From Burkholderiales bacterium (GTDB lineage: Bacteria > Pseudomonadota > Gammaproteobacteria > Burkholderiales > Burkholderiaceae_C), in assembly GCA_021414305.1 (NCBI GenBank), contig JAIOOS010000001.1, positions 10,694-74,693 of the forward strand: a stretch of DNA of 64,000 nt. Direction: 5' to 3'. Below the pieces are notes generated by a model that was given only the letters and a program-made list of their open reading frames with translations, made no database searches and was not told the origin of the DNA. Positions 37,511 to 61,201 of this stretch are shown here, piece by piece. Made by a program: the position numbers and the translations under genes. The first letter of the stretch is position 1; every line of letters begins with the position of its first letter.

Positions 37511-39108
37511 TGGTGCATCGCGTCATCCCCCTCACCCCAGCCCTCTCCCCCTCCGGGGGCGAGGGAGCAGGAACTCCCTCTCCCGCCGGGGCGGGAGAGG
37601 GCCGGGGTGAGGGTGGCGGCGACGGGCTCGGCTGCCACTCCGGCAAGACGCAGATGCACGCGGCGGCGATGGCCGCCGGCAAGAGCGAGGTGCTCGCCCA
37701 GTACGCGCACGACTACCCCGTCGACGCCAAGGCCGGTCCGCACGACCAGCCGCAGAGCATGTGCCCGGCCTTCGGGTCGCTGCGCGTCGGCCTGCGCATG
37801 CGCCGCACCGCGACCATCCTCTCCGGCTCGGCCTGCTGCGTCTACGGCCTGACCTTCACCTCGCACTTCTACGGCGCGCGGCGCAGCGTCGGCTACGTGC
37901 CGTTCAACTCGGAGACGCTGGTCACCGGCAAGCTGTTCGAGGACATCCGCGACGCCGTTCACAAGCAGGCCGATCCCGCGCACTACGACGCGATCGTCAT
38001 CATCAACCTGTGCGTGCCGACGGCCAGCGGCGTGCCGCTGAAGCTGCTGCCGCGCGAGATCAACGGCGTTCGCATCATCGGCATCGACGTGCCGGGGTTC
38101 GGCGTGCCGACCCACGCCGAGGCCAAGGACGTGCTCGCCGGCGCGATGCTGAAGTACGCGCGCGGCGAGGTCGAGGCCGGCCCGGTGCAGGCACCGAAGA
38201 ACGGCCGCTCCGAGAAGCCCACCGTCACCCTCCTCGGCGAGATGTTCCCGGCCGACCCGATGATCATCGGCGCGATGCTCGAGCCGCTGGGGCTGGCGGC
38301 GGGGCCGGTGGTGCCGACGCGCGAGTGGCGCGAGCTCTATGCGGCGCTCGACGGCTCGGTGCTGGCGGCGATCCATCCCTTCTACACGGCGAGCATCCGC
38401 GAGTTCCAGGCCGCCGGCCGGCCCGTGGTCGGCTCGGCACCGGTGGGCTGCGACGGCACCGAGGCATGGCTGCAGGCGATCGGCACGACCGCCAACGTCG
38501 CGCAGGAGAAGATCGACGCGGCCAAGAACCGCTTCCTGCCCGCGATCCGCGGCGCGCTCGCGAAGATGCCGATCAAAGGTCGCATCACGCTCTCCGGCTA
38601 CGAAGGCTCGGAGCTGCTGGTCGGCCGCCTGATGGTCGAAAGCGGCGCCGATCTGCGCTATGTCGGCACCGCCTGCCCGAAGACAGCCTGGAGCGACACC
38701 GACCGGCAGTGGCTCGAGGCGAAGGGCGTACACGTCCAGTACCGCGCTTCGCTCGAGCAGGACCTGGCGGCGATGCGCGAGTGGCAACCCGACCTCGCGA
38801 TCGGCACCACGCCCGTCGTGCAGGCCGCCAAGCAGGCCTCCATTCCGGCGCTGTATTTCACGAACCTGATCTCCGCCCGGCCCCTGATGGGCCCGGCCGG
38901 CGCCGGCTCGCTGGCGCAGGTGATCAACGGGGCGATCGGCAACAAGGCCCGGTTCGACGCGATGAGCGAGTTCTTCGGCGGCGCCGGCAAGGACCACGCC
39001 GCCGGCGTCTGGGAAGCGACGCCGAAGGACCGCCCCGAATTCAAGGCCGAAACGCGCCGCCAGATGGAAAAGCTGGCCAAGAAGCGCAAAGCCGAACAGA
39101 TGATCTGA
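37510..39108 (+). CDS. bchY: Chlorophyllide a reductase subunit Y
   Basis: [56 protein letters not shown]; GC-rich repeat near the N-terminus. Confidence 0.96.
37529..37613. repeat. 85-bp cruciform palindromic element (copy A) inside the 5' end of bchY
   Basis: Terminal inverted arms CCCTCACCCCAGCCCTCTCCC / GGGAGAGGGCCGGGGTGAGGG (20/21) plus two internal CCCTCTCCC...GGG(A/C)GAGGG hairpins. Confidence 0.85.
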
Positions 39109-59578: not shown

Positions 59579-59607
<29 letters not shown>

Positions 59608-61201
59608 AGAGGGTCTCGACCGTGATCGTCGGCATGCCGCGCTCGCTGGCGTAGCGCTCGGTGTTGCGCCGGGCCCGGCCGCGAACGAAGAAGGGAATCT
59701 TGTGCAGCTCGCGCTCGGCGTCGGGCGCCCAGCCGACCGCGATCGCCGAGCCCTCACCCTGGCCCTCTCCCGCCGGGCGGGAGAGGGAGGAATGCACTTC
59801 GGGCTCCCTCTCCCGCTCGCGGGAGAGGGCGGGGGGTGAGGGTGCAGCACTCGTGCCCGAGCCCAGATGCGAAGGCGCCGCATCGGCATGGAACTCGAAG
59901 TCGCCGCGGAACATGCCGATCAGGTGCTCCTCGAGACCCATCATCAGCGGGTGCACGAAGGCGTCGAACAGGCCGTTGGCGCCCTCGAAGCCCATCTGCG
60001 GCGAGTAGCGCGCAGGGAAGTCCTGCACGTGAACCGGGCCGGAGATCACCGCGCAGGGAACGCGCAGCCGCTTGGCGATGTGCCGCTCCATCTGCGAGCC
60101 GAGCACCAGGTCGGGCTGCAGCGCCTCGACCTGCGCTTCGACCTCGAGGTAGTCGTCGCTGATCAGGGGCTCGACGCCGTACTTCTTCGCCGCCTCGCGG
60201 ACCTCGCGTGCGAACTCGCGGGCGTAGGTGCCGATGCCGCAGACCGTGAAGCCGAGCTCCTCGGCGGCGACGCGCGCCGCGGCGACGGCGTGGGTCGCGT
60301 CGCCGAAGACGAAGACGCGCTTGCCTTCCAGGTAGGTCGAGTCGACCGAGCGCGCGTACCAGGTCGCGCGCGCTTCGTTGGCCGCGAGGACGGGCGCGGG
60401 GTCGATGCCGGCCAGCGCCGCGACCTCGGCGATGAACTCGCGCGTCGCGCCGGTGCCGATCGGGATGGTCTTCGTCGCCGGCTGGCCGAAGCTGCGGGTC
60501 AGCCACTGCGCGGCGATCGACGCGACTTCCGGGTAGAGCACGACGTTGAAGTCCGCGTCGCCCAGCCGGGCGATGTCTTCCGGGCCGGCGCCGAGCGGCG
60601 CGACGACGTTGATCGCCACGCCGAGCTGGCCGAGCAGGGCGCTGATCTCCTTCAGGTCGTCGCGGTGGCGAAAGCCGAGCGCGCACGGGCCGAGGATGTT
60701 GCAGCTCGGCTTGACCGCGGGGTCCCTGGCCGGCCGAACCCAGCCCGGCGCAGGCGCCTTCGGACCGGCGAGCGTGCGCACGACCTGATAGAAGGTCTCG
60801 GCGGCGCCCCAGTTCTCCTTGCGCTGATACGAGGGCAGCTCGAGCGCCACGACCGGAATGGGCAGGTCGAGCGCCTTCGCCAGGCCGCCCGGATCGTCCT
60901 GGATCAGCTCGGCGGTGCAGGATGCGCCGACCAGCATCGCCTTCGGCGCGAAGCGCTGGTAGGCGTCGCGGGCCGCGTTCTTGAACAGCTCGGCCGTGTC
61001 GCTGCCGAGGTCGCGCGCCTGGAAGGTGGTGTAGGTGACGGGCGGGCGGCGCGGCAGCCGCTCGATCATCGTGAACAGCAGGTCGGCGTAGGTGTCGCCC
61101 TGCGGCGCGTGCAGCACGTAGTGCACGTCCTTCATCGCCGTGGCGATGCGCATCGCGCCGACGTGCGGCGGGCCTTCGTAGGTCCAGAGCGTGAGTTGCA
61201 T
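59579..61201 (-). CDS. bchB: DPOR subunit B
   Basis: [52 protein letters not shown]-terminal [15 protein letters not shown]. Confidence 0.97.
59751..59842. repeat. 92-bp cruciform palindromic element (copy B) inside the bchB linker
   Basis: CCCTCACCCTGGCCCTCTCCC ... GGGAGAGGGAG ... CTCCCTCTCCC ... GGGAGAGGGCGGGGGGTGAGGG; same architecture as copy A. Confidence 0.85.

Follow-up and report, generated by a model that had tools for sequence, protein, structure and literature searches.

A 92-bp nested palindrome at 59751–59842 of the window, the 64,000-nt stretch of Burkholderiales DNA analyzed here, lies within the reading frame of bchB, which encodes subunit B of DPOR. Does this element, hereafter copy B, serve the gene that carries it, or does it merely reside there? 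Our analysis indicates that copy B is very probably a non-autonomous two-unit copy of the BoxC/PIT/TMECO repeat family and a tolerated passenger in the disordered linker of BchB, not a device.

Copy B is laid out as CCCTCACCC-TGG-CCCTCTCCC-GCCGGGC-GGGAGAGGG-(18-nt spacer)-CCCTCTCCC-GCTCGC-GGGAGAGGG-CGGG-GGGTGAGGG (Table 1). Either strand folds with a predicted energy of −83 to −88 kcal/mol (z = −8.5 to −8.9), forming one long hairpin as readily as a two-hairpin cruciform. An Rfam search of the region gave microRNA-like noise below the threshold and nothing else, so that it can be assigned to no known RNA family. The first-pass annotation had described a 92-bp element with the arms of another copy in the window, copy A, translated on the minus strand between the catalytic and PCP_red domains of BchB. 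Both observations were confirmed. Copy B encodes 31 residues in frame, and the global alignment of copies A and B scored 51.5, about 10 standard deviations above 2000 shuffles (0.36 ± 4.9, maximum 23.5), while random windows scored at most 16. The similarity thus exceeds that of the controls, and the element stands as observed. Expected 1.06 times in the window, the block GGGAGAGGG is present 7 times, and GGGTGAGGG, expected 0.57 times, is present 4 times, all within copies A and B. The annotation had further placed both copies in poorly conserved segments of paralogous proteins. The BchB linker is indeed hypervariable, but copies A and B do not occupy homologous positions, since BchY has BchN and not BchB as its paralogue.

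Table 1 Coordinates of copy B, its relatives and the associated genes. Positions without a contig name are those of the window.
Feature	Position	Strand	Description
Copy B	59751..59842	.	Tail-to-tail inverted pair of BoxC/TMECO-type units; minus-strand translation is BchB residues 454-484
Copy B, left unit	59751..59787	-	CCCTCTCCC-GCCCGGC-GGGAGAGGG-CCA-GGGTGAGGG; in the genome, C29:70444-70480
Copy B, spacer	59788..59805	.	Unique 18 nt, AGGAATGCACTTCGGGCT
Copy B, right unit	59806..59842	+	CCCTCTCCC-GCTCGC-GGGAGAGGG-CGGG-GGGTGAGGG
Copy A	37529..37613	.	85-bp tail-to-tail pair, BoxC/PIT/TMECO family; just after the bchX stop, at the 5' end of the bchY frame
bchB (DPOR subunit B)	59579..61201	-	540 aa, intact ORF
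BchB interdomain linker	59732..59860	-	Residues 448-490, between SHLG and W491; hypervariable
bchB of G010 with decayed pair	C6:684776-686485	-	Pair at locus L008, about 1700-1850
Further intragenic copies	G000 contigs C1, C4, C9, C10, C11, C12, C13, C16, C26, C30		Loci L098-L111
Only DUF559 (PF04480) gene of G000	C7:277836-278153		Bracketed by a tail-to-tail pair and a single unit
DUF559 gene with bracketing units	G000 C7:277783-278246		Locus L143, 1448-1911

Members of the BoxC/PIT/TMECO family are found with the search pattern CCCTCNCCC-N3-6-GGGNGAGGG-N3-GGGNGAGGG (Holder et al. 2015, PMC4666352). In the source genome (G000; 5.28 Mb in 30 contigs, 69.8% GC, 93.7% complete), this pattern gave 67 strict hits, whereas the reversed-pattern control gave 0. 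A census of units of the form CCCTCTCCC-loop-GGGAGAGGG-loop-GGGTGAGGG yielded 104 units at 73 loci. Of these loci, 42 have a single unit, 16 a head-to-head pair and 15, copies A and B among them, a tail-to-tail pair. Both halves of copy B carry all three 9-nt blocks without mismatch and fall outside the 67 strict hits, each having one loop that is 1 base too long for the published pattern. Loop 1 of the left unit measures 7 nt, 1 above the maximum, and loop 2 of the right unit measures 4 nt, a rare variant present in 5 of the 104 units. Loop lengths across all units are continuous (3–9 nt for loop 1, 2–5 nt for loop 2) with identical blocks, and copy B is therefore read as a loop-length variant. 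It belongs to the BoxC/PIT/TMECO family. Within the genus the family is patchily distributed, with 67 strict hits in G000, 29 in G010, 10–13 in three fragmented genomes and 0–5 elsewhere.

The first-pass annotation had taken conserved stems with variable loops as a sign of selection on secondary structure rather than on the peptide, and had suggested a covariation analysis on all genomic copies. This analysis, run on the 104 units, does not support that view. Each 9-nt block is identical in 93–96 of the 104 units, variation lies in the loops, and there is essentially no compensatory change: position 6 shows one compensatory G–C and 6 mismatches, and the stem extension has a GC/CG swap. Because the stems hardly vary, the covariation test itself is uninformative for structure. 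The third block is not part of the hairpin, and the dominant loop 1 in the genome, GCTTGC, extends the stem to 11 bp. As far as sequence can tell, block conservation is a sequence-specific trait of the family, common to E. coli BoxC, and not a locally selected fold.

The pairs offer few traces of how they spread. All 31 pair spacers (9–38 nt) differ from one another, so the pairs were not copied whole. A search for target-site duplications found flanking direct repeats no longer than in randomly paired flanks. A search for RAYT (Y1_Tnp, PF01797) matched the control genomes but nothing in this genome, which is 93.7% complete, and no other transposition footprint was found at the repeat loci.

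We then considered the host protein. BchB matches the solved BchB structure 8vqi_B over its full length (residues 1–540, E 3e-227), and Pfam assigns Oxidored_nitro to residues 12–419 (E 2e-83) and PCP_red to residues 491–535 (E 2e-20). The linker between them has no consensus across 33 aligned orthologues. In the orthologue alignment for linker length, a check proposed with the annotation, the span from GLEEH to IPFFVRG varied from 63 to 121 aa across 84 other orthologues, which share no conserved residue between SHLG and the W of PCP_red. The AlphaFold monomer shows residues about 431–489 as coil with pLDDT of about 30–35 and a confident PCP_red; as the model is mediocre overall (mean pLDDT 68), it was consulted for the linker alone. 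Our literature search on disorder of the BchB C-terminus found nothing specific to this linker. Copy B has not lengthened the linker: the GLEEH-to-IPFFVRG span is 87 aa in this genome and 83 aa in the nearest relative, G005. Relative to G005, the linker lacks about 26 codons and has an AIAV motif after the element. Copy B thus appears to have replaced the middle of an older linker. This replacement counts against the passenger reading, as plain insertion does not explain it.

Just one other BchB, that of G010, carries a BoxC/TMECO repeat, which is absent from the remaining 83 of the 84 other orthologues. The G010 copy starts exactly six codons past SHLG, which is the codon of copy B, and in the same frame. 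It is a decayed pair with mismatched stems and a spacer of about 70 nt, longer than that of copy B, and here too the middle of the ancestral linker is replaced where the repeat sits. The rare loop 2 CGGG is common to the two copies, on opposite strands relative to the gene. In a BchB tree built with the linker left out, G000 groups with G005 and G013 (100/100), both without the element, and G010 falls in another clade (99/94), among element-free sequences. The phylogeny indicates that the two copies are of independent origin; most parsimoniously, one codon received two separate insertions or is a hot spot. Such recurrence could reflect something beyond passive tolerance, for example a target preference or a local benefit.

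Residence in a reading frame is not peculiar to bchB. At least 17 of the 73 loci (copy B plus at least 16 others) lie in frame inside genes, in linkers or loops, with genes called by our own conservative GC3-based classifier plus Pfam. By the same GC3 classifier, 50.7% of random segments are coding (p = 3e-6 against 17/73), so the family is depleted from genes, yet far from excluded. All intragenic copies checked are interdomain or at a domain edge by Pfam. Copies with Pfam domains on both sides occur in PurL (two), oxoprolinase (two), UvrA, a 2049-aa UvrA paralogue, Mfd, DnaE, the E2 and E3 lipoyl linkers, GlpD, a 1410-aa FAD-oxidase/CCG protein and a Pyr_redox_2-BFD protein. Tail-to-tail pairs are intragenic at 9 of 15 loci; for the other two forms combined the figure is 8 of 58 (Fisher p = 6e-4). 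In the encoded peptides Gly accounts for 23% of residues, Pro for 21%, Ala and Glu for 10% each and Ser for 9%; the majority have the ending ...AGEG(R/W/Q)GEG.

Three further intragenic copies, likewise with Pfam domains on both sides, lie at junctions resembling fusions of neighboring genes. The frames they bridge join an OHCU decarboxylase with an M20 peptidase (L098, C1:36451-38361), a LivM-type permease with an ABC ATPase (L104, C13:414063-415916), and an ABC ATPase with UPF0261 (L107, C26:53418-56561). The genes joined in these frames are usually separate neighbors. The frames may represent gene fusions brought about by the repeat, or translation of the downstream gene may still begin at a start of its own.

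The PurL loop (residues 687–716 in G000) allows the same site to be compared among species. It holds a pair in G000, the same pair at the same site in G011 and a collapsed remnant in G003, and it is clean and empty, with 3–4 residues, in at least six relatives. Three changes are inferred on the PurL tree, with which a single origin of the copies would be compatible, as would several. The blocks of the G000 and G011 copies are identical at 53 of 54 positions, their loops and spacer at about 50%, and the flanking coding DNA at 84% overall and 69–70% at third positions. Such block identity fits a sequence-specific requirement of the family, gene conversion or repeated insertion; the comparison does not demonstrate a locally selected RNA fold. 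A different palindromic family occupies the loop in G016 (L122; peptide ...AAKDS...ILRSAQDD...) and G022 (L126; ...SEAKDP...ILRSAHDD...), and three other relatives have unrelated inserts of 13–14 residues there. The PurL loop is a multi-family insertion hot spot. Collectively, the 73 loci, the coding depletion, the empty PurL sites and the hypervariable BchB linker support the earlier proposal of independent insertions that survive in tolerant linkers.

The family is also associated with a nuclease gene. The GGGTGAGGG blocks of the units that bracket the single DUF559 gene of G000 face this gene, the tail-to-tail pair is in frame with the N-terminus of its ORF, and six repeat loci lie within 19 kb of it (277.8–296.2 kb). 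G010 has a stand-alone DUF559 gene bracketed likewise, with units overlapping the ORF ends. In the rest of the genus, the seven genomes with a completeness of 90% or more have 0–3 strict hits and lack DUF559. Many of the relatives are represented by fragmented genomes, and in G001, G022 and G023 several strict hits lie 40–260 bases from contig ends; assemblies thus break at the repeats, which leads to underestimates of both copy number and DUF559 presence in these genomes.

This association extends to metagenomic DNA, in which we gathered 80 DUF559 loci by peptide patterns drawn from the nuclease domain only. TMECO units lie within 600 bp at 59 of them, against a background of 3 units in 575 kb. 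Of 53 nearest upstream units, 49 are plus-oriented, and all 45 nearest downstream units are minus-oriented, mostly within 60 bp. Tail-to-tail pairs usually form the 5′ end of these cassettes, and the loci without canonical units carry variant modules of a hairpin plus third block. In the three E. coli strains checked, the presence of DUF559 tracks repeat number. MG1655 has 23 units and the DUF559 gene ycjD, whose product is a Vsr-like PD-(D/E)XK protein; IHE3034 has one unit and no DUF559; and 55989, with 29 units (Holder et al. 2015, PMC4666352), has DUF559. In MG1655, the distance from ycjD to one unit downstream of it is 168 nt, and a duplicate of the ycjD 3′ end adjoins this unit. The region 3′ of ycjD (NC_000913.3:1351195-1351470; L153, 5195-5470) contains this BoxC unit, a degenerate hairpin next to the stop and the roughly 30-nt duplicate of the ycjD 3′ coding end, and it resembles what a second cassette or an insertion would leave behind.

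The DUF559–repeat association is an observation, and from it we infer that DUF559 mobilizes the repeats. A homing gene aimed at repeat pairs would be expected to give the same layout. The fuller proposal, in which BoxC/TMECO repeats are non-autonomous partners of a DUF559 (YcjD-type) cassette, spread in trans, and act as generators of linker diversity as well, is in our estimate a little short of probable. Among the papers searched, none links DUF559 or ycjD to repeats.

A course of events can be proposed for copy B as a tolerated passenger. The family has expanded to its present number in this Burkholderiales genome, and the cassette of the DUF559 (Vsr-like PD-(D/E)XK) nuclease on contig C7 would have spread it in trans. 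Copy B would have inserted into the hypervariable, disordered segment between the catalytic and PCP_red domains of BchB, taking the place of part of it. With no stop in this frame and a length that preserves it, the element is read through by ribosomes. The resulting peptide is hydrophilic, with Glu, Pro, Ser, Arg and Gly abundant, and would serve as linker; DPOR is probably unaffected, and copy B is presumably neutral at bchB. The conserved 9-nt blocks would reflect a family-wide need, either recognition by a protein or triplex and hairpin formation during spread.

Other readings of copy B were weighed against the same data. It is very unlikely that copy B is kept for a stable mRNA hairpin, acting as a ribosome pause or as a 3′–5′ exonuclease barrier or processing site that sets the bchB:bchH ratio. 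The minus (mRNA) strand does fold strongly (−83 kcal/mol, z = −8.5), the element lies 170–263 nt ahead of the bchB stop and the bchH start, and the same family occupies the same codon in a second BchB lineage. However, the two nearest relatives are among the many BchB orthologues that lack the element, the stems of the G010 copy are mismatched, and at least 16 unrelated genes also contain the element. A promoter and terminator scan found no promoter-like or terminator-like site and no U-tract near copy B, and earlier work cited in Holder et al. 2015 (PMC4666352) reported no promoter or terminator activity of the E. coli motif.

We also consider it improbable that copy B acts as fragile, recombinogenic DNA (triplex or cruciform) that drives turnover of the linker, whose hypervariability would then be partly a consequence of the repeats. 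About 80 BchB orthologues without the repeat have equally variable linkers, and what points to fragility is correlative: sequence variability around TMECO sites far exceeds that of control intergenic sites (Holder et al. 2015, PMC4666352), the ancestral linker middle is gone at the element in both G000 and G010, and the PurL site holds the repeat, its collapsed remnant, an unrelated palindromic family or unrelated short inserts, depending on the species. Finally, there is almost no chance that copy B is not an insertion at all, being instead ancestral low-complexity linker that resembles copy A, or an assembly artefact. Linkers in high-GC genomes are often rich in Pro, Ala and Gly, and contigs of the fragmented relatives often break at these repeats; both versions are nevertheless contradicted by the A/B similarity, by blocks identical to those of about 100 other units, and by flanks that on both sides are collinear in-frame bchB with every conserved residue present.

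Copy B alone, read as a tolerated passenger, is neat but ordinary: a selfish repeat in a floppy linker. More deserving of attention are the in-frame lifestyle of the family, its recurrence at identical sites (the BchB codon and the PurL loop) and its link to DUF559. A repeat family hitherto called intergenic is, in this lineage, a frequent in-frame resident of essential genes. Through its residence in dnaE, uvrA, mfd, purL and the E2/E3 linkers and its same-site recurrence in different species, the family shapes the linkers of proteins, and BoxC/TMECO repeats are to be expected there in annotation and structural work. The tight, oriented association with DUF559, which spans Beta- and Gammaproteobacteria and diverse metagenomic contigs, provides a concrete candidate enzyme for a 30-year-old orphan repeat. 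If this reading is true, it would explain the mobility and origin of BoxC/TMECO, unexplained since the 1990s, and would mean that in-frame insertion into protein linkers is frequent in GC-rich Burkholderiales, with at least 17 genes of this genome carrying units.

Several known systems resemble the repeats described here. A MITE identity was rejected, as no target-site duplication beyond chance was seen. REP/REPIN–RAYT systems (REPtrons) likewise have a single small nuclease gene flanked by inverted repeat copies and a repeat number that tracks this gene. The gene flanked here, however, is DUF559 (Vsr-like PD-(D/E)XK) rather than a HUH Y1 transposase, and spacers are not shared between pairs; with no RAYT in the genome, identity with a RAYT-mobilized REP/REPIN was rejected as well. 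Dimers of intragenic GTAG/CGTC REPs encode 20–30 residues, notably in uvrA, uvrB and replication or repair genes (Di Nocera et al. 2013, PMC3733652), and the G000 copies in UvrA, its paralogue, Mfd and DnaE recall this distribution, but the G000 units bear no GTAG or CGTC tag and the genome lacks RAYT. Rickettsia palindromic elements (reviewed in PMC10969869) are also palindromic, lie in frame in many unrelated housekeeping genes at positions that the fold can accommodate, and add a peptide. Copy B behaves similarly, in an intact ORF, with the frame kept and at a tolerant site, as do the copies at 16 further loci. There is no sequence relationship: the Rickettsia elements are about 100–150 bp, AT-rich, encode a conserved peptide and belong to reduced genomes of obligate intracellular bacteria, whereas the G000 units are 36 bp, GC-rich and read in several frames.

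The closest likeness is to BoxC/PIT/TMECO itself, a repeat of E. coli and other Proteobacteria. The three 9-nt blocks are the same and in the same order, CCCTCNCCC, GGGNGAGGG, GGGNGAGGG, separated by short variable loops, and the units occur singly or as inverted pairs, dispersed, highly over-represented and patchy between close relatives. Holder et al. 2015 (PMC4666352) listed near-identical E. coli sequences, described the copies as intergenic, found no function and detected an intrastrand purine-motif triplex by CD and NMR in vitro. That triplex was seen with E. coli oligonucleotides; the present repeats share the block sequence. In contrast to the intergenic E. coli BoxC, copy B and at least 16 other G000 copies are translated in frame.
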